IMG/VR virus record: IMGVR_UViG_2571042487_000002
Location: 1-34,042 of that record
Source of the DNA: a virus
Lineage: Duplodnaviria; Heunggongvirae; Uroviricota; Caudoviricetes
Length of the DNA stretch: 34,042 bases
Strand: one strand, 5' to 3'
The position numbers and the translations under genes are program-made. Below the pieces are notes generated by a model. It did no database searches. It worked only from the letters and a program-made list of their open reading frames with translations, and was not told the origin of the DNA. Below, piece by piece: positions 19,581 through 26,721 of this stretch (within the stretch, counting starts at the first letter, position 1; each line of letters opens with the position of its first letter).

Positions 19581-20278
19581 GCGAAATTAATTACCGGGCA
19601 CTGCGTGAGATAGCAAAACAGGCAACACAGGGCGAATGGGTCGCATTTATTTCGCCGGGTACTGGTACGTATGCGGTGCATACGCCCGGTGATAAACGAT
19701 GTGAAGACGTTATCAAATGGACCGGCTTTGATGGACTGAAAAACGCAGAGAACAACGCTCGTTATATTGCCGCATTCAACCCAAAGGTTGCACTGGAGCT
19801 ACTTGGTGAAATTAAGCGCCTGGAGGACACAAATATTGATGCTATGTGCCGAATAGCACCGCTTGAGACTAAGCTCGCGGCTCTGGTGGCAGAGAACGCT
19901 GGGCTGAAACACGCAATGGCTGTAACTCTTGATCATGTGTCGGTCACGGATGCAGGGCAGGCCGGAGTTGCTGCAATGATTATCAACGATGCCCTACACC
20001 ACAGCGAAACTCCAGCTACCGATGCTTTTCTGGCTGAAATTCGTGCGGAAGCACGCAACGAGGGGATTAACTATACCGCCAGCCGTCTTGCTGCTGCGTT
20101 CAATCACGGATTTATCAATAAGTCTTTGCGTGAAGTTTTCGACGTTACGCGCATGATTCTGTCAGCGAAAGAAGAGTTGGCTAATGAACCGTACCCGATT
20201 GATGGCCTGTCCGGTGAATATGCGGAGAAATCCCTTGAAGAATGGGCTGAACAGATTCGCAAAGGAGCTGACAAGTGA
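19577..20278 (+). CDS. Ead/Ea22-like accessory protein
   Basis: GTG start after AAAGGAGG; N-terminus VSEINYRALRE... shared with the ORF at 21440; C-terminal block PATDAFLAEIRA shared with the ORF at 20694. Confidence 0.5.
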   Translation: MSEINYRALREIAKQATQGEWVAFISPGTGTYAVHTPGDKRCEDVIKWTGFDGLKNAENNARYIAAFNPKVALELLGEIKRLEDTNIDAMCRIAPLETKLAALVAENAGLKHAMAVTLDHVSVTDAGQAGVAAMIINDALHHSETPATDAFLAEIRAEARNEGINYTASRLAAAFNHGFINKSLREVFDVTRMILSAKEELANEPYPIDGLSGEYAEKSLEEWAEQIRKGADK

Positions 20279-20685
20279 AGAAGATGATTTTTGTCGCGGC
20301 ATTGTTGGTGAATATCCAACAAGTGCATGCTTCAGCAGCTATTGTAGCCTCTACCGCCGCGACTACGGCTGCTGTAGCTGCTGCGAACTCTGCGAATATC
20401 GCAAACCAACAGGCACAGCGTGCTGCTAATGCATCAGCCAGCGTTCACCCAATCACCATTAAGAGCAGTAAGCAAAATCTGGGATTCATAACGTGCGGCA
20501 CGCGTTCTAATGAAGCTGTAGGCTCTCTGGGATGTACGGTATATGGCGATAGTGAGCGCAGAGAAATTCCATGGAAAACGTGGCCCGGATACGTTCTCGG
20601 ATCGAAGCTCCCTGCCAGCTACGAAGTAAATGCCGTATCGTTTGATCACTATAACGGCGTGGCAACTGTCTATTTTACATACTGA
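20275..20685 (+). CDS. Secreted or periplasmic small protein (signal peptide)
   Basis: N-terminus MKKMIFVAALLVNIQQVHA-SAA is a signal-peptide-like h-region with AxA cleavage site; two Cys in the mature part. Confidence 0.5.
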   Translation: MKKMIFVAALLVNIQQVHASAAIVASTAATTAAVAAANSANIANQQAQRAANASASVHPITIKSSKQNLGFITCGTRSNEAVGSLGCTVYGDSERREIPWKTWPGYVLGSKLPASYEVNAVSFDHYNGVATVYFTY

Positions 20686-20693
20686 GGCTCCGC

Positions 20694-21443
20694 ATGAAAT
20701 TCTCCAAATTTTCTGAGTTGGTGAATCGTATTTTGTTGAATCGTATTTTGTCCAACAACCACAGCCATCGTCGCGATATGGATGTAACGATCGTTGTTCA
20801 TTCGCCTGGCAGCATTGGTTCAACACCTTCAGTTGAGGTTCAGTCAATTCACGCTGGTTTTGATTGGGATTCCGGGAAAGTGCTTATTTTCCCATCACAG
20901 CCACTGACCACGCTAACACCAGAACAGATTACTGATATCACTGATAGTGTGCGCAAAGGTCAGTCTTGGCACGCATATCAGGAATACAAGAAGCATCAAG
21001 AGCAGTTGGAAAAATTGTCGATTGAACTGGATGCCGCAAAACAGCGCATTGCAGAGCTGGATGGTAATCGCACGGCGCTGGCAGTGGAGAATGAGCTGGC
21101 TCGTAAGGCAGTTCAGGCATTCTGCGATGTTGTTGGCGACAACACCGAGGTTATCGCTGAGGTGGTTGGGCGAGATGGCGTTCTGGTTATTTTGGAGGCC
21201 ATGAAGGCAACAGGAAATATGCCAGCCACCGATGCTTTCCTGGCTGAAGTGCGGGCGCAGGGCGTGGATGCTGCTATAGAAGCTGCAAAAAATCTGGTGG
21301 CCCAAGAATATGAGTATAAGGATTTCAAAGCGGCGCAGAGTGATTGCTGTATGCACCCTGGTTCAGACCTGGTAGGGAAGGTTGAAATGACTGAGTGGTT
21401 AGTTGACTTTGCTGCCCAGCTTCGCAAAGGAGGCAACCAGTGA
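20694..21443 (+). CDS. Ead/Ea22-like coiled-coil accessory protein
   Basis: Central coiled coil; C-terminus ...FAAQLRKGGNQ and a PATDAFLAEVRA block. Confidence 0.5.
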   Translation: MKFSKFSELVNRILLNRILSNNHSHRRDMDVTIVVHSPGSIGSTPSVEVQSIHAGFDWDSGKVLIFPSQPLTTLTPEQITDITDSVRKGQSWHAYQEYKKHQEQLEKLSIELDAAKQRIAELDGNRTALAVENELARKAVQAFCDVVGDNTEVIAEVVGRDGVLVILEAMKATGNMPATDAFLAEVRAQGVDAAIEAAKNLVAQEYEYKDFKAAQSDCCMHPGSDLVGKVEMTEWLVDFAAQLRKGGNQ

Positions 21444-21928
21444 GCGAAATTAATTACCAGGCACTGCGTGAGGCGGCGGAACGTGCAATTCCAGCAATGG
21501 AACGCCTGTTAATGTTGCCAGCTGATGATGATTTGTTAAGTGAACAGGAACTTAAAGATTACGGTGTGGATATTGATGCGCTCAACGCCTTCAAATTTCT
21601 GGCCGGACCAGAAACCGTGCTGGCACTACTGGATGAACGGGAAAGGAACCAGCAATACATCAAATCCCGCGACCAGGAGAACGAGGATATTGCGCTAACG
21701 GTAGGGAAGTTGCGCGTTGAGCTTGAGGCAGAAAAACAGCGGGCAAAGGATCTGTTTATGGAAAATGCTCGGCTTAAGTCAGGTATAGCCGGTCTGATAC
21801 ACCTCGGTATTCGATATGCAGATGTTGATGTCATGAAAATTGCTGGAGATGCCCAGCTTTCTACCCCATGCACTGACAGCATCATAAACAGCATTGCAAC
21901 AGGCATTCGCATCAACGGAGGTGAGTAG
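21440..21928 (+). CDS. Ead/Ea22-like accessory protein
   Basis: GTG start after AAAGGAGG; N-terminus VSEINYQALRE. Confidence 0.5.
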   Translation: MSEINYQALREAAERAIPAMERLLMLPADDDLLSEQELKDYGVDIDALNAFKFLAGPETVLALLDERERNQQYIKSRDQENEDIALTVGKLRVELEAEKQRAKDLFMENARLKSGIAGLIHLGIRYADVDVMKIAGDAQLSTPCTDSIINSIATGIRINGGE

Positions 21929-22104
21929 TGCGTGTGGCATGTATTGGCTTGTTACCGTACCCGACTCGTTTTTGGGCTTCTGCGCTAATTGCAAAGCCAC
22001 AGGTCCTGATGGCTGACAACATCACCCCAGCACCAAAGCGCCGCCATACCGGTATTGCAGCGGCACGACGAGCAGCAAAGAGACGCAGGAGAGCAAAGCG
22101 ATGA
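21928..22104 (+). CDS. Possible small basic protein (58 aa)
   Basis: GTG start after GGAGGTGAG; Arg/Lys-rich C-terminus (AAARRAAKRRRRAKR); not in the ORF track. Confidence 0.25.
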   Translation: MRVACIGLLPYPTRFWASALIAKPQVLMADNITPAPKRRHTGIAAARRAAKRRRRAKR

Positions 22105-22277
22105 AAAACCGTAAGGCAAAACGACTTTTTTTACAGCGACCTGTGCGTGTGGTGGAGCTGGTTATCAGCAACCATAAGATAGCGGTACTCCATCCATTTG
22201 GTCAGGTGGCTTTTGCCGCAAAGCGTAAGCCTAGCGCGTCACAGAACAGGCGGAAGAAAGGGTACGCAGTAAGATGA
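22101..22277 (+). CDS. Small basic protein (58 aa), paralogue of the next ORF
   Basis: ATGA coupling; MKNRKAKRLFLQRP...KRKPSASQNRRK parallels the ORF at 22274. Confidence 0.35.
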   Translation: MKNRKAKRLFLQRPVRVVELVISNHKIAVLHPFGQVAFAAKRKPSASQNRRKKGYAVR

Positions 22278-22462
22278 AAAACCGTAAAGCAAAGATTCTG
22301 TTAGTTCGTAGAAACGCTCCTGGCGTCTGGCAGTGGGTGAGACTCAGCAACCGACGGATGGGGTTGATGAAATATTACGGGATGATGGATTGTGGTTTTT
22401 GCAAAAAGCCCAGCGCGGCGCAAAACCGCTGGAAAAACCATTTGCGCACTAAAGGAGAGTGA
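22274..22462 (+). CDS. Small basic protein (62 aa)
   Basis: MKNRKAKILLVRRN...KKPSAAQNRWK; contains CGFC. Confidence 0.4.
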   Translation: MKNRKAKILLVRRNAPGVWQWVRLSNRRMGLMKYYGMMDCGFCKKPSAAQNRWKNHLRTKGE

Positions 22463-22463
22463 T

Positions 22464-22979
22464 ATGGCGTTAACACACCGCGAACTCTGTCAGATTGCGT
22501 ACAAGTTCCTTAAGCGCAACGGGTTCAAGGTTTGTTTTCATGACCGCTTTATAGCTGTAACCAGTACCGGAGAACAGCCAGATGCTATGGGGTTCAGAAA
22601 TTCAGCATCATGCCTGATAGAGGCGAAGTGTTCTCGTGCTGATTTGTTGGCAGATAGAAAAAAGCGTTTTCGTAAAAATCCGTCTCTTGGAATGGGCGAC
22701 TGGCGATTCTTTATTAGTGAGCCGGGAATTATTTCAATTGAGGATTTACCACCTGGCTGGGGATTACTTCACGTTGTTAACGGAAGAGTACGGAAAGTAC
22801 ATGGGTGGCCCAAGGGTAATTGCTGTTGGGGTAACCCTGAAGATAAACCTTTTATTGGGAATAAGCAGGTTGAATGCGATTACATGTTATCTGCATTAAG
22901 GCGCATGGAGTTGAGAGGGCACCTTAATGAAATATATGACGGTGTAATTGTTAATAAGAAAGAAGGAAACGCGGCATGA
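22464..22979 (+). CDS. PD-(D/E)xK nuclease-like protein
   Basis: Start refined to the ATG after AAAGGAGAG; GEQPDAMGF...CLIEAKCS fits a PD...E-x-K core. Confidence 0.45.
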   Translation: MALTHRELCQIAYKFLKRNGFKVCFHDRFIAVTSTGEQPDAMGFRNSASCLIEAKCSRADLLADRKKRFRKNPSLGMGDWRFFISEPGIISIEDLPPGWGLLHVVNGRVRKVHGWPKGNCCWGNPEDKPFIGNKQVECDYMLSALRRMELRGHLNEIYDGVIVNKKEGNAA

Positions 22980-23833
22980 TCACTATTACCAAAGAGCGAC
23001 TGCTGACAATCAAGCAGTGGCGCGAAACATACGGACCTGATAGCAACGTTGTACTGCCAGCAGAAGAAGCGGAAGAACTGGCGCGTATCGTGCTGGCATC
23101 GCTGGAAGCAGAGCCTGTTCTGTATCAGTCCTGCACTCGCCCCACCTGGAATAGCGGTGTTCCGTGGACGGAATGGAAAGAACGTAGTCGTGAGTGCTAC
23201 GAAGACGATTTGCGTTTTACAGACACGCCTGACCATGCCGGTTGGATATACAAATGTCGAAAACTATATACCACTCCGCCAGCGCCGATAGCGTTAGAGG
23301 CCATTGAAAACGCAATTGAATACATTCGTAGTATCGCTTTTCACATCGATGAAGACGATTACCACGGCAAACATATTGCGTATTTCATGCGACAAGCATT
23401 GGCCTGGCTGGAAGGGCATTCATGCAGCGACGACAGACTGGGTAAAGCCGACAATCAACCAGTACGCGGCAACCAGGCTGCCGAATCCAATCGCGGTAAT
23501 GAGTGGACCGGCAATCCTGATATTGATAACGCAATCATCATGCTCGACCGCATAGATACGGCGGAAAGTTACGATGATGACCGTATTGAGGCTGTTAAGG
23601 CTGTTTTGCGTAGACTGGCAGGCAACTCTCCGGTAACTCCGGATGGTTGGATAAGCTGTAGTGAGCGAATGCCCCCTCAAGATGATTGGATTTTAATTTA
23701 TTCAAAGCACGGCGAGTATATGGCAGGACAGGTACAAGGGGAATACGTGGAGTTGAGCGACGGCACTTTATCGTGGTTAGGGAACGCCTTGTTCTGGATG
23801 CCGCTACCAGAACCGCCGCAGGAGGCGAAATGA
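22976..23833 (+). CDS. Ead/Ea22-like protein with DUF551-like C-terminus
   Basis: C-terminal WISCSERMPP...WILIY...G...LSWLGNALFWMPLPEPP matches the DUF551 pattern seen in lambdoid accessory genes. Confidence 0.5.
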   Translation: MITITKERLLTIKQWRETYGPDSNVVLPAEEAEELARIVLASLEAEPVLYQSCTRPTWNSGVPWTEWKERSRECYEDDLRFTDTPDHAGWIYKCRKLYTTPPAPIALEAIENAIEYIRSIAFHIDEDDYHGKHIAYFMRQALAWLEGHSCSDDRLGKADNQPVRGNQAAESNRGNEWTGNPDIDNAIIMLDRIDTAESYDDDRIEAVKAVLRRLAGNSPVTPDGWISCSERMPPQDDWILIYSKHGEYMAGQVQGEYVELSDGTLSWLGNALFWMPLPEPPQEAK

Positions 23834-24090
23834 TGGATGTAAAAGAGAAGGTTTTGCAGGTGATGCGTTCCCGTGCTGCCCTACAAGAGAAAGCTCTCGG
23901 CGGTGAATATCCATTCACGATAGCAACCTGGAATCTGCGGTTGGCAATGGAGAAGGAATTTCCTGATGAAGAATGGCGCTCGGCAGATTTGCGCAAAATT
24001 CTTATGGAGCTGGCTAAAGACGGAACAGTATCCAAAGATACCCATGCCAGCCGGATTGGTCAGGCGGTATGGAGACTTGAGGTGCGGTAA
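23830..24090 (+). CDS. Hypothetical protein (86 aa)
   Basis: ATGA coupling to the upstream gene. Confidence 0.35.
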   Translation: MMDVKEKVLQVMRSRAALQEKALGGEYPFTIATWNLRLAMEKEFPDEEWRSADLRKILMELAKDGTVSKDTHASRIGQAVWRLEVR

Positions 24091-24166
24091 TGAGCTGGCC
24101 TGAAGCATTTGCGATTGTAGGCGTAGCTATGGCGATTGCCGCTATTTTTATCTTCTGGGGGTAACG

Positions 24167-24400
24167 ATGGGAAAATTAACTTTTGTTGTCGAATTTGAGG
24201 ATGGCAAAGAGCCACCTGTTAGCGCCAATCTTGATGTTGCTGGTGGCAGGCTGGTTTCGGTTCTATTTGGTGATTACCGCGACGACTTCTTTCAGCCTGA
24301 AGAAGTTGATGTAGTGCGAGAGGCATTAAACGAGTTAAGTGTTGATAACGATGATGCTCATGCGGAAATCATCCAAAAAATGGAACTGCTAACTCACTAA
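24167..24400 (+). CDS. Hypothetical acidic protein (77 aa)
   Basis: ORF; preceded by a 24-codon hydrophobic micro-ORF (24090-24164). Confidence 0.35.
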   Translation: MGKLTFVVEFEDGKEPPVSANLDVAGGRLVSVLFGDYRDDFFQPEEVDVVREALNELSVDNDDAHAEIIQKMELLTH

Positions 24401-24448
24401 ATTATCAATTATGGTGCTATCACCTACGACACCGAGAGAAAATTTATA

Positions 24449-24571
24449 ATGTCAAAAGTAAATGTTTTGATTTTTTCAGCAATTGTTGGCTTTGGTTTTA
24501 CTGCCGGAGTGCAGATTTATATTACGTGGGAAAAAATCATCAACTACGCATGGAGTTGTTTTATTAAGTGA
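24449..24571 (+). CDS. Possible small membrane peptide (40 aa)
   Basis: MSKVNVLIFSAIVGFGFTAGVQIYITWEKIINYAWSCFIK; lies in the A+T-rich islet. Confidence 0.25.
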   Translation: MSKVNVLIFSAIVGFGFTAGVQIYITWEKIINYAWSCFIK

Positions 24572-24578
24572 GGTAAGT

Positions 24579-24872
24579 ATGTGGAGAGGTAATAATCATG
24601 GCAAAAGCCAGATGATACTTACCGAATATAAGCTAGACCACAAAACCAATAAATCACGCTCAGTATATTTGCTCCGGCACAATAGCCGCGTAAGAAATAC
24701 CGTGCTGGAACAAAATCTGACAGTTGAAATGGATAATTGCGGGGAATTCAAGCCAACAATTTCGCTTGATGATTTTCCTCGTGGTTTAAGCGAAAGAGAT
24801 GCAATGCTGAAATTAGCAGAATGGCTACAAAGATTAAGCATTGCTATTGAAGATAACTGGTCTGAACCTTAA
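24579..24872 (+). CDS. Hypothetical protein (97 aa)
   Basis: Start refined to the ATG after AAGTGAGGTAAG; lies in the A+T-rich islet. Confidence 0.4.
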   Translation: MWRGNNHGKSQMILTEYKLDHKTNKSRSVYLLRHNSRVRNTVLEQNLTVEMDNCGEFKPTISLDDFPRGLSERDAMLKLAEWLQRLSIAIEDNWSEP

Positions 24873-24878
24873 ATTTAT

Positions 24879-25253
24879 ATGATGACACTAAAACATTTTC
24901 TTGACCGCCCATTATGGGCGGCAGCCGCAGGCTATGACTTTAATTATATGGATTGCATGTCTTATACTGCCAATGCATACGACCATTCGTTCATCCTGCT
25001 GTTTAATTCTTTAAGAATATTGCCGGAAACAGAAGTTGGAGAGCTTCATTTATGGCTATTGGGCTTTATCGCGGCTGTCGTTGGTATTGCTGTATGGCCT
25101 TTTATTTTCTGGCTGGTGGCTGTTGTAGTGTGGTTTAAGTGCAAGACATACCGGAAAAAGTATTTCTTAGGTGATGGAATGACTGATATTGCCAAAATGA
25201 ACATTGAAGAATGGACTAAGGAATGTGAAAAGAAATGGCGCAAAAAGAAATGA
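24879..25253 (+). CDS. Hypothetical membrane protein (124 aa; 2 predicted TM helices, K-rich tail)
   Basis: LWLLGFIAAVVGIAVWPFIFWLVAVVVWF hydrophobic core; lies in the A+T-rich islet. Confidence 0.4.
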   Translation: MMTLKHFLDRPLWAAAAGYDFNYMDCMSYTANAYDHSFILLFNSLRILPETEVGELHLWLLGFIAAVVGIAVWPFIFWLVAVVVWFKCKTYRKKYFLGDGMTDIAKMNIEEWTKECEKKWRKKK

Positions 25254-25834
25254 CCAGAATCACTGAAGAGCGCATATCAGAGATTATTTCCCGTATCGAA
25301 ATGTATGGTCACGGTGCTGGATATACGGCAGATGAAGTATTGGAAATAGCCCAGCAGATGCTGGCCTTGAGACAAAAAGAGCAACATGAAAGTAATACGT
25401 GTAGATTGAATTTTGAGCATTGGCTGGAACAGCAACGCGGAAAAATCGATGTGGACTGTGGTTGTGTGTCCACTGAAACATTCATGCACTGGCTGTGGGT
25501 AGCTTACGAGGCTGGCACCGGTGAACGTATCCGCATTAAGCCGCATGTTTATCGCGAACTGGTTAACCGTCTCCACGATACAGCGATCAAGTGTGCTGGC
25601 ACCCAGCAATTACGAGAAAGAATTAGCCGTGTTTTGGGCGACGTTATTACACCAGATCATCATAAACAAGCCGAGAAAAGTGACCTGGAAAGGTGTCACC
25701 TTGAGGCGGCATTAAACATTAAGCCGGGGCATACGCTTGGCATTATTGATGCACTATTGGTTCATAAGATGGCCAGGGCTTTATTGCCGCTGGTGGCTGA
25801 AAAGCATGAGGTGGACCATGCCAACGAAAGCTGA
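25235..25834 (+). CDS. Hypothetical protein (199 aa)
   Basis: ORF; no motif recognised. Confidence 0.45.
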   Translation: MAQKEMTRITEERISEIISRIEMYGHGAGYTADEVLEIAQQMLALRQKEQHESNTCRLNFEHWLEQQRGKIDVDCGCVSTETFMHWLWVAYEAGTGERIRIKPHVYRELVNRLHDTAIKCAGTQQLRERISRVLGDVITPDHHKQAEKSDLERCHLEAALNIKPGHTLGIIDALLVHKMARALLPLVAEKHEVDHANES

Positions 25835-26102
25835 ATTACAGGTGCGCGTAGATGAGCTTGAAAAAGAGAACGCGAGCCTCAAAAAAATGCTGTCGCGGGC
25901 GGAAAGGGAATTATCAGGCAAATTATTGCCAGAAGAACTGCCACCAGCAGATATACCTGATCGAGTGTCCTGGTGGATGAAGTATTTCCGTGCACCGTGG
26001 GAGGCGTTTTGGTGCTACGACCATCGCAGATGGTGTGATGAACTTGATAGCAATTTTCCCTACTTTGCGGAAGGGAACACCTGCCCTCAATGCAGGGGAT
26101 AG
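25818..26102 (+). CDS. Hypothetical protein (94 aa) with N-terminal coiled coil and C-terminal CPQC
   Basis: Start refined to the ATG after GAGGTGGACC. Confidence 0.4.
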   Translation: MPTKAELQVRVDELEKENASLKKMLSRAERELSGKLLPEELPPADIPDRVSWWMKYFRAPWEAFWCYDHRRWCDELDSNFPYFAEGNTCPQCRG

Positions 26103-26469
26103 CATTTGACGAAATCGATCACCCTATCCTGAACTTCAGAAAGAAGGTCTTTTTCACGCGCCAGGACGTCAGGATATTGACGTCCTGGCCTTACCAGCTG
26201 CCGGAGCTTCCCATTAAGCAGAATGGCCTCAGAAAACACTTTTACGCTGTGCTTTATCCCCTCTGTTTCACTTTTCAGCGTCAAAATAATGCGCAATTGC
26301 TTATTAGCCTGATTCGGATTCAATACACGAATTTGCAGTTCGTCTATGCTGTTCCGCAATGGGATTGATGCCACCACACTGGTGCAGTCTCTGATTGTCT
26401 GAATTGAACGGCTAACATTGAGAACGTTATTGTGCATGTGCCTGATCCACTAACTCCTGGAGGTTTCTT

Positions 26470-26721
26470 GTGTCAGATCGAAATATAGCAGCTAAAAGCC
26501 AGGAAGAGCGAGACAAGGTGAACGTAGACCTTGCCGCCAGCGGCGTTGCTTACAAAGAACGGCTGAATATACCTGTGATTGCAGAGCAAGTGGCCCGTGA
26601 GCAACCGGAAAACCTGCGCGCCTATTTCATGGAACGGCTACGGCACTACCGGCAGTTAAGCCTCCAGTTGCCAAAAGGGAGCGATCCGGTGTATCAGAAC
26701 GAGGATGCACCAAAAAAATAA
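26470..26721 (+). CDS. hot: Homologue of DNA polymerase III theta subunit (HolE-like)
   Basis: GTG start; core [43 protein letters not shown] closely parallels E. coli HolE ([39 protein letters not shown]...). Confidence 0.8.

Follow-up and report, generated by a model that had tools for sequence, protein, structure and literature searches.

An MmcB-like PD-(D/E)XK nuclease gene and a probably mobile cassette of small basic genes in a predicted C1-controlled operon of a P1/P7-like phage-plasmid

Do three consecutive small basic ORFs that lead into a nuclease-like gene form a functional unit with it, or have independent genes merely come to lie side by side? This question is raised by a stretch of 34,042 nucleotides from a tailed phage, hereafter the window, in which the initial annotation had noticed such an arrangement and considered it a plausible regulator or anti-defence set. 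As detailed below, we regard it as probable that the four ORFs are genuine, coupled genes of a P1/P7-like operon preceded by a C1 operator, that the larger one encodes an MmcB-like nuclease and that the small ORFs constitute an independent mobile cassette. The features concerned are:

18138..18154, plus strand: P1-type C1 repressor operator ATTGCTCTAATAAATCT, 17 bp, directly after pap, corresponding to Op(hea) of P7
21440..21928, plus strand: Ead/Ea22-like gene, 162 aa (Pfam PF13935, E=7.6e-33), upstream neighbour of ORF1
21928..22104, plus strand: ORF1, 58-aa basic protein of an Escherichia-restricted orphan family (phrog_13831)
22101..22277, plus strand: ORF2, 58-aa member of the MKNRKAK / SNR(H)K / SAxQNR family (phrog_1380)
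22274..22462, plus strand: ORF3, 62-aa member of the MKNRKAK family (phrog_1380)
22464..22979, plus strand: PD-(D/E)XK nuclease-fold protein by structure prediction, 171 aa, homologue of P7 upf89.0
22976..23833, plus strand: 285-aa gene with a C-terminal DUF551 (P22 EaA-like) domain (PF04448, E=2.5e-10)

Inspection of the junctions revealed that the four ORFs are tightly packed and conserved, and lie where they had been placed. ORF1 starts with a GTG that overlaps the TAG stop codon of the Ea22-like gene (TAGTG), most relatives having ATG at this position, and its Shine-Dalgarno sequence is carried by the 3' end of the Ea22-like gene (GGCATTCGCATCAACGGAGGTGAGTAG). The starts of ORF2 and ORF3 each overlap the preceding stop codon by ATGA, just as initially described. 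The nuclease gene is likewise present, with its ATG at 22464 rather than 22465 and an AAGGAG Shine-Dalgarno sequence 6 nt upstream; a single base separates it from the stop codon of ORF3 (TGA-T-ATG), which means that an ATGA overlap is absent here. The stop codon of the nuclease gene overlaps the start of the 285-aa gene by ATGA (22976). The counterpart of the latter gene in MH422554 is annotated as EaA protein. P1-like plasmids and phages carry a near-identical region. A search of positions 21000-24000 against Rfam yielded no match at E<=1, and the RNA of positions 21900-22480 is predicted to fold less stably than shuffled sequence (z=+1.38), which gives no indication of a structured RNA in this segment. 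ORFs on the minus strand were dismissed, as they contain stops in variants and run into whichever gene is located upstream.

Operator ATTGCTCTAATAAATCT differs by one mismatch from the C1 consensus, and ten such sites are present in the window as compared to 0.18 expected by chance. Its position and flanks match the annotated Op(hea) of P7, where the order is pap, Op(hea), Ea22-like gene and upf89.0, i.e. the nuclease gene. With an operator at its start and synteny to P7, the operon has the features of a C1-controlled operon of the P1 family and is predicted to be repressed, the site at 18138..18154 representing the predicted control point for ORF1-3 and the nuclease gene. Promoter-like sites on the plus strand were not found within 19000-26500, and the only terminator-like site on this strand ahead of 24129 is a weak one at 21168, which is consistent with one long operon. 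The four translationally coupled genes would belong to a long plus-strand accessory operon equivalent to the 'hea' operon of P7. From the C1 operator, silence of this operon in the plasmid prophage is predicted, and by homology of the operator its expression would follow derepression. The P7 gene upf89.0 (NC_050152) is 98% identical to the nuclease gene and occupies the same place after the Ea22-like gene; however, P7 lacks the ORF1-3 cassette and the stop codon of its Ea22-like gene is 1 nt away from the nuclease start. RefSeq designates the P7 product 'minor tail protein', a name for which our analysis provides no support.

In its content of Ea22-like, DUF551/EaA-like and ASCH genes, the operon is a homologue of the exo-xis (ea) region found in lambdoid and Shiga toxin (Stx) phages. 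Within exo-xis, lambda and Stx phages carry the same gene families (ea22, orf61, orf63, orf60a; ST933Wp03-12 in 933W), and both regions share the order Ea22-like gene, small ORFs, DUF551/EaA-like gene and ASCH gene. Phage 933W carries this gene set between exo and xis, and like VT2-Sakai and many further Stx phages it possesses ORF1 and ORF3. The present block resides on a P1-like plasmid behind a C1 operator, whereas the lambdoid block lies between exo and xis under pL; moreover, 933W has no nuclease gene at this place. The exo-xis region modulates the lysis-lysogeny decision (PMC10789677, PMC3824215), and ORF1-3 are not among the exo-xis genes studied. Full-length matches were obtained to phrog_1380, phrog_13831, phrog_9263 and phrog_631, all of 'unknown function' and catalogued without function, motif or structure. 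Thus, the genes are already known as hypothetical phage proteins, also in RefSeq (WP_000797289.1, WP_141087180.1).

What does the largest of the four genes encode? The structure of the 171-aa protein was predicted with confidence and exhibits the alpha-beta-beta-beta-alpha-beta core of the PD-(D/E)XK nuclease fold, with the characteristic D ... (D/E)-x-K motif on strands 2 and 3, so that according to this model the protein has the fold together with its catalytic motif. The PD...EAK core recognized in the initial annotation is thereby substantiated: 33 homologues from many genera retain E37, D40, E53 and K55 without exception, and there is little or no variation at P39-D40 and E53-A-K55 either in these homologues (60-88% identity) or in relatives of 44% identity. 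D40, E53 and K55 form a predicted metal site, which makes DNA cleavage the most likely activity, and early in the lytic cycle the protein may act on DNA of the phage or the host. Matches to the HMMs of phrog_9263 and phrog_631 have E values of 1e-121 and 9e-94, respectively, and the family spans Escherichia to Shewanella, Alteromonas and Flavobacterium. No Pfam family, including PF06319, matches the protein at E<=1, and NCBIfam yielded none. The closest structure is 3DNX, the representative of DUF1052, with which the motif D...IExKxSRxDFxAD can be aligned; the link to 3DNX by sequence comparison is not significant by itself (E=0.17), and the viral structural matches are named MmcB-like. The protein thus appears to be a distant relative of DUF1052/MmcB-like proteins (PF06319; 3DNX, SPO1766; Caulobacter MmcB), sharing the PD-(D/E)XK fold, the core motif and the single-domain architecture of ~150-170 aa. 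MmcB is a PD-(D/E)XK endonuclease, and a role in the repair of mitomycin C damage and crosslinks is known only for the Caulobacter protein (PMC9578287). Conserved motifs of its own (GMGDWRF, LPxGWGLL) and a C-terminal helix set the phage clade apart from DUF1052/MmcB. Furthermore, mmcB is an SOS-regulated chromosomal repair gene, whereas the present gene is borne by phages and prophages in an early accessory operon.

Turning to the small ORFs, their lengths of 58, 58 and 62 aa, net charges of +14, +15 and +14 and isoelectric points of 11.3-12.0 agree with the earlier description of Arg/Lys-rich proteins of ~58-62 aa. ORF1 is unrelated to the other two by sequence comparison. It matches the phrog_13831 HMM over positions 1-58 of 58 (E=5.3e-40) and combines a hydrophobic N-terminal half with an Arg-rich tail (PKRRHTGIAAARRAAKRRRRAKR; pI 12). 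Its family comprises 80 clusters, and every named source is Escherichia. Diverged variants retain the frame of ORF1, as does 933W despite an in-frame deletion of 7 aa; frameshifted variants are common as well, one of them (P0252) occurring on 95 contigs. ORF2 and ORF3 are paralogues (39% identity, BLASTP E=2e-10), as had been recognized from their common MKNRKAK start and KPSA(S/A)QNR(R/W)K block; a 21-nt direct repeat is located at their starts, and both match the phrog_1380 HMM over their full length (E=3e-23 and E=1e-40, respectively). In alignments, both show the three motifs of this small orphan family, NRKAK, SN(R/H)(R/K) (SNRR) and SAxQNR (SAAQNRWKNH); the middle parts of the proteins vary strongly and contain indels. 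The initial annotation had viewed the pair as a tandem duplication. The paralogy stands; its origin is old instead, since the ORF2-type lineage, which ends in GYAVR, and the ORF3-type lineage have each diverged into variants of their own and are found together in one locus (L025). ORF2 is missing from many arrays, and arrays with and without it coexist. The small-ORF family has no match in Pfam or the PDB, and searching the literature for the peptide strings returned none. A C2H2 zinc finger (zf-C2H2_jaz) in ORF3 was rejected, as the hit is weak and falls short of the cutoff (E=0.096) and family members do not share the Cys residues.

Several observations indicate that the small ORFs are probably conserved and translated. 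Of the six frames, only the annotated one is open, and its dN/dS is the smallest (0.22-0.38). For ORF2, the value is 0.22 as compared to a variant of 67% nucleotide identity, which has the same length and remains open, and for ORF3 values of 0.35-0.41 were obtained; open frames are kept in variants down to 67% nucleotide identity. Changes within the two terminal motifs of ORF3 affect almost exclusively third codon positions. Conservation, on which the initial annotation had let its proposal depend, is hence borne out by the PHROG matches and by the open frames in diverged variants. Purifying selection is only moderate, and frameshifted versions are not rare (P0252; L063, L074). In addition, the last ~25 nt of ORF3 (CATTTGCGCACTAAAGGAGAGTGA) double as Shine-Dalgarno and boundary sequence of the nuclease gene, and the conservation at the ends of the small ORFs is due in part to such embedded signals rather than to the peptide.

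This raises the possibility that the small ORFs are translation relays, i.e. by-products of recombination at gene boundaries that keep ribosomes coupled along the operon and whose peptides have no function of their own. Their conserved ends indeed hold start, stop and Shine-Dalgarno signals (AGGAG, AAAGGAGAGTGA), and the variability of their middle parts would fit, as would the common occurrence of frameshifted or chimeric variants (P0252, P0174 and P0155, a chimera with DUF4014). The AF2 model of ORF3 is of low confidence (pLDDT 67.5), too low for a fold search, and this may likewise be counted in favour of relays, together with the direct coupling of the nuclease gene to the Ea22-like gene elsewhere, where no relay is needed. 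However, NRKAK, SNRR and SAAQNRWKNH are kept in distant phrog_1380 members despite a different sequence at the C-terminal junction and also in genes that stand alone, the dN/dS minimum falls on the annotated frame and the lengths in the family are held at 58-65 aa. We therefore consider it unlikely that the small ORFs are relays only, and favour genuine, independent accessory genes.

Are these genes linked to the nuclease? A module in which the small basic proteins regulate, inhibit (in the manner of an antitoxin) or assist the nuclease is suggested by the adjacency and translational coupling of the genes in the window, by the finding that in about half of the E. coli phage loci a gene of the ORF3 family immediately precedes that of the nuclease, and by occasional ORF3-nuclease fusions (phrog_9263, L074). 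Yet among 80 viral loci whose nuclease is 97-100% identical, 41 lack a small ORF ahead of it. In P7 and in ten loci from other Enterobacteriaceae species of several genera, an Ea22-like or other gene adjoins the nuclease gene instead, the Ea22-like genes being called by Pfam scan, and a small-ORF homologue was found in none of 31 genome loci. Conversely, small ORFs precede unrelated genes in 933W and in two further loci (L062, L038), and in unrelated phages members of the family occur by themselves, with upstream spacers of ~500 nt. The 170-aa gene that precedes a distant member of the family (L116) turned out not to be a nuclease homologue. Among complete E. coli genomes, 931 contain the nuclease gene, 587 some small-ORF sequence and 128 the full block of three ORFs. 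The fusions are due to the loss of 1 nt from an A5 run, and none of the four proteins matches a PADLOC defence model at E<=1. Thus, the conserved co-occurrence and adjacency that mark toxin-antitoxin or nuclease-inhibitor pairs were not observed, the proposal of a functional regulator or anti-defence set found no support, and a module of this kind is very unlikely. The small proteins are not cognate partners of the nuclease. Since roughly every second E. coli phage locus does have small ORFs ahead of the nuclease gene, a facultative functional link between them is conceivable.

The fusions could alternatively signify that ORF3 and the nuclease are one gene, expressed by programmed +1 ribosomal frameshifting. 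This idea draws on the 230-aa phrog_9263, which spans ORF3 (positions 1-61) and the nuclease (62-230), on an A-run (CAAAAAG) in the overlap, and on a GTG-started ORF of 195 aa that overlaps ORF3, gene callers often extending the nuclease to an upstream GTG (P0001). However, homologues in all genera start with M-x-LTH and have their own Shine-Dalgarno sequence, half of the loci lack ORF3, and CAAAAAG, read in the frame of ORF3, does not constitute a canonical slippery heptamer. In the sole fused locus observed (L074) the A-run is 1 nt shorter, reflecting a deletion or a sequencing error. Programmed frameshifting was rejected on these grounds and appears hardly credible.

The 3' end of the Ea22-like gene resembles, in a junction alignment, the boundary sequence that precedes the nuclease gene in loci without small ORFs. 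We propose that the small ORFs form a mobile cassette of the composition ORF1-(ORF2)-ORF3, which would be placed at gene boundaries sharing a short Shine-Dalgarno/stop/start sequence (...GCGCA..AAAGGAGAGTGAnATG), where recombination could have introduced it behind the Ea22-like gene and in front of the nuclease gene, or removed it from there. As to the activity of the proteins, nucleic-acid binding seems the most likely, albeit with low confidence, because of their extreme basicity and their conserved Asn-Arg motifs. The Arg-rich tail of ORF1 (RRAAKRRRRAKR) and the ORF3 motif AAQNRWKN bear a loose resemblance to the Arg-rich, Trp-containing lambda N peptide, and arginine-rich peptides of the lambda N type are similarly short, very basic and encoded in early phage operons. 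By comparison with lambda N, the small ORFs display no detectable homology, no boxB-like target was identified and structural support is absent. That the MKNRKAK/SNRR/SAAQNRWKNH proteins and the Arg-rich ORF1 represent a new class of early-operon effectors binding RNA or DNA is a speculative and rather improbable idea.

Taken together, our data do not reveal a new system: the apparent module of small ORFs and nuclease is a product of ordinary lambdoid phage mosaicism. The nuclease gene, which is present in about 17% of the complete E. coli genomes and in many Stx phages, lacks a model in Pfam and NCBIfam, and RefSeq leaves it without annotation, lists it as a pseudogene or gives it a wrong name; it can now be assigned to a divergent, MmcB/DUF1052-like branch of PD-(D/E)XK proteins. 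Likewise, the two families of small basic proteins are unannotated or carry wrong starts in reference Stx phage genomes such as 933W. These families are located in the exo-xis region, which affects prophage induction and hence Shiga toxin production.

The initial annotation had described four closely packed plus-strand ORFs, which we found at the positions that it gave. Small corrections concern one start coordinate and the nature of the duplication. The four ORFs are:

21928-22104, plus strand: ORF1, 58 aa, GTG start overlapping the TAG of the upstream gene
22101-22277, plus strand: ORF2, 58 aa, ATGA overlap
22274-22462, plus strand: ORF3, 62 aa, ATGA overlap
22464-22979, plus strand: 171-aa nuclease-like gene, starting one base past the ORF3 stop, AAGGAG Shine-Dalgarno sequence 6 nt upstream

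The stop of the 171-aa gene overlaps the next gene (22976), again via ATGA. The products of ORF1-3 have pI values of 11.3-12.0 and net charges of +14 to +15. ORF2 and ORF3 are paralogues (39% identity, E=2e-10 in BLASTP) with a 21-nt repeat at their starts, and ORF1 is related to neither.

The 171-aa protein has no match in Pfam, NCBIfam or PADLOC. Its homologues fall into 319 clusters, typically 160-176 aa in length, and form a well conserved family that reaches from Enterobacterales out to Shewanella, Alteromonas, Chromohalobacter, a Rhodobiaceae MAG and Flavobacterium. Among 33 homologues, E37, D40, E53 and K55 show no variation and P39 shows almost none, and GMGDWRF, LPxGWGLL and a C-terminal ...ALRR... 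helix are conserved as well. DUF1052/PF06319, represented by structure 3DNX, was assigned to the PD-(D/E)XK superfamily by Steczkiewicz et al. (PMC3424549), and the profile of the 171-aa family aligns with 3DNX over the catalytic core (...D.....IExKxSRxDFxAD...), with an E-value of 0.17 that is not significant alone. Foldseek comparison with viral models yielded matches named ‘MmcB-like DNA repair protein’ (E 1e-7 to 1e-3); MmcB of Caulobacter is a PD-(D/E)XK endonuclease protective against mitomycin C (PMC9578287). Because of the 3DNX core alignment and the MmcB-like Foldseek matches, we call the 171-aa protein a divergent relative of MmcB/DUF1052-like nucleases by fold and motif, with predicted nuclease activity, although it lies outside the DUF1052/MmcB family in the Pfam sense. 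At this level, the results support the earlier assignment as a nuclease and narrow it to ‘MmcB/DUF1052-like’. In three Salmonella enterica proteins (P0089, P0092 and P0100), a short Ea22-like N-terminus (DKQALREAAEK...) and Q/H-rich repeats are fused to the nuclease domain, which suggests that Ea22-type proteins can carry the nuclease as a C-terminal module.

The intact 171-aa gene is treated poorly in public records. In two near-identical plasmids (L001 7065-7243, L002 4065-4243), PGAP annotated no more than the first 179 nt of the gene, labelled a ‘frameshifted’ pseudogene, and left the remainder unannotated; RefSeq P7 (L123 2501-3016) names it ‘minor tail protein’, and MH422554 carries it without any annotation. 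A single A missing from the run CAAAAAG accounts for phrog_9263, an ORF3-nuclease ‘fusion’ family, and for the corresponding locus L074, and programmed frameshifting is not needed.

Several lines of evidence favour ORF1-3 being real genes. Each has a full-length match to a PHROG family, and ORF2 and ORF3 are called by RefSeq in sister plasmids. Open frame and length are kept in variants at 81-82% (ORF3) and 67% (ORF2) nucleotide identity, with dN/dS values of 0.35-0.41 and 0.22, respectively, and the annotated frame has the lowest dN/dS of the six frames and is the only open one. The ORF1 start is ATG in most relatives, and ORF1 withstands an in-frame 7-codon deletion in phage 933W. When 1.84 billion representative proteins were searched exhaustively by profile, the ORF2/ORF3 family yielded only 51 clusters; its distant members keep three motifs, M-x-NRKA(K/R)-x-LL, (R/K)(I/V)SN(R/H)(R/K) and (K/R)xSAAQNRWKNH, separated by variable spacers and followed by a variable extreme C-terminus. 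Selection on the small ORFs is nevertheless no more than moderate. Variants with frameshifts or chimeric structure are common (one, P0252, occurs on 95 contigs), and ORF2 is broken in loci L063 and L074. The final ~20 nt of ORF1 and ORF3 also supply the next gene's Shine-Dalgarno sequence. We found no relative of the small-ORF family in Pfam or PDB, and neither an Rfam match nor unusual RNA structure in the region; the AF2 model of ORF3 is unreliable (pLDDT 67.5, pTM 0.29).

It had also been proposed that the small basic proteins are functionally coupled to the nuclease. Gene distribution argues against such a module. Of 80 viral contigs whose nuclease gene is 97-100% identical, 39 carry an ORF3-family gene directly upstream of it, with the full ORF1-ORF2-ORF3 array in roughly 23 and mostly ORF1-ORF3 in the rest. 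In the other 41, no small ORF is present upstream, and the end of an Ea22-like or other gene precedes the nuclease start; P7 has this ‘empty’ arrangement. Of the genes immediately preceding the nuclease at ten loci of other Enterobacteriaceae species, five score as Ea22-like above the Pfam cutoff, two are weakly Ea22-like and three are of another kind, and HMMs of both small-ORF families found nothing in 31 genome loci. Of 5426 complete E. coli genomes, 931 have the nuclease, 587 have at least part of the small-ORF block and 128 have the complete three-ORF block. Conversely, small ORFs precede other genes or stand alone: ORF1-ORF2-ORF3 (locus L062) or ORF1-ORF3 (933W) precede a 69-71-aa Cys-rich gene, an ORF3 copy (L038) precedes yet another gene, and distant ORF2/ORF3 family members occur on their own between structural genes or, in a P22-like prophage, after erf-ssb.

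Over about 25-30 nt, the Ea22-like gene and ORF3 have similar 3' ends (...CATT(T)(C/G)GCGCA..AAAGGAGAGTGA) that lead into the same start context, and Shine-Dalgarno/stop/start boundaries of this kind recur at other junctions in the block. Recombination between such boundaries could add or remove a 0.36-0.54-kb cassette, leaving translational coupling undisturbed. Such gain and loss would be the classical lambdoid mosaic pattern. In E. coli P0155 and P0178, the first 32 residues, identical to those of ORF3, are joined to a DUF4014 membrane peptide of the 933W ST933Wp07 type, a chimera that shows recombination within a small ORF as well as at its ends.

The block contains three Ea22-like genes, a DUF551/EaA-like gene and ASCH genes, and resembles the exo to xis region of 933W, which reads orf60a, orf63, orf61, Ea22-like, ORF1, ORF3, other small genes, DUF551 and ASCH. 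In the 933W reference (L115, NC_000924; 3500-3655, 3652-3840, 3770-4057), ORF1 (a 51-aa variant) and ORF3 are present and unannotated. ST933Wp08 is annotated from a GTG within ORF3; more probably, a 71-aa Cys-rich protein begins at the ATG that directly follows the ORF3 stop (about 3842) and has a good Shine-Dalgarno sequence.

Elsewhere in the window, a 192-aa ORF (12695-13273) matches VRR-NUC weakly (PF08774, E=3e-4, narrowly missing the cutoff), which would make it a second nuclease candidate of the PD-(D/E)XK type. The adjacent, overlapping ORFs 13437-14099 and 13997-14623, both with sub-threshold MptE-like (PF01973) matches, may be a paralogous enzyme pair, and a calcineurin-like phosphoesterase (PF00149, E=9e-16) follows at 14605-15297. 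Between two Ea22-like genes, a 136-aa ORF (20275-20685) without Pfam match combines an N-terminus resembling a signal peptide (MKKMIFVAALLVNIQQVHA) with a low-complexity stretch rich in Ala, Asn and Gln.

The region matches E. coli P1-like phage-plasmids and ‘Punavirus P1’ isolates at 99-100% identity. Allowing at most 3 mismatches, the window contains ten P1 C1-operator-like sites as compared to 0.18 expected by chance, which mark several putative C1-controlled transcription units of a P1-family genome:

2305-2332, 12373-12389, 15997-16062, 18138-18154, 29165-29181, 33438-34001: C1-operator-like sites, several paired

The operator at 18138-18154 (ATTGCTCTAATAAATCT) equals P7 Op(hea), flanks also being alike. 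In the annotated P7 genome, pap is followed by Op(hea), ‘predicted to regulate expression of hea operon’, and then by the equivalent block, in which the Ead/Ea22-like gene upf88.3 directly precedes upf89.0, 98% identical to the 171-aa gene. The first reading frame past the operator is a hydrophobic 28-codon ORF (MNTAFKIIMAAIYFWLFSITFGGIVAHG, 18237-18323), kept in P7 (L123 259-345) without annotation. From the operator to about 24.1 kb, we saw no plus-strand promoter-like site, the sole plus-strand terminator-like site is a weak one at 21168, and nearly all gene ends overlap or abut. For these reasons the four genes should be part of one long operon, predicted by homology to be C1-repressed in the prophage state. 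All four are already catalogued as hypothetical proteins; to this our analysis adds an assignment at the level of the fold, described motifs and corrected annotations.
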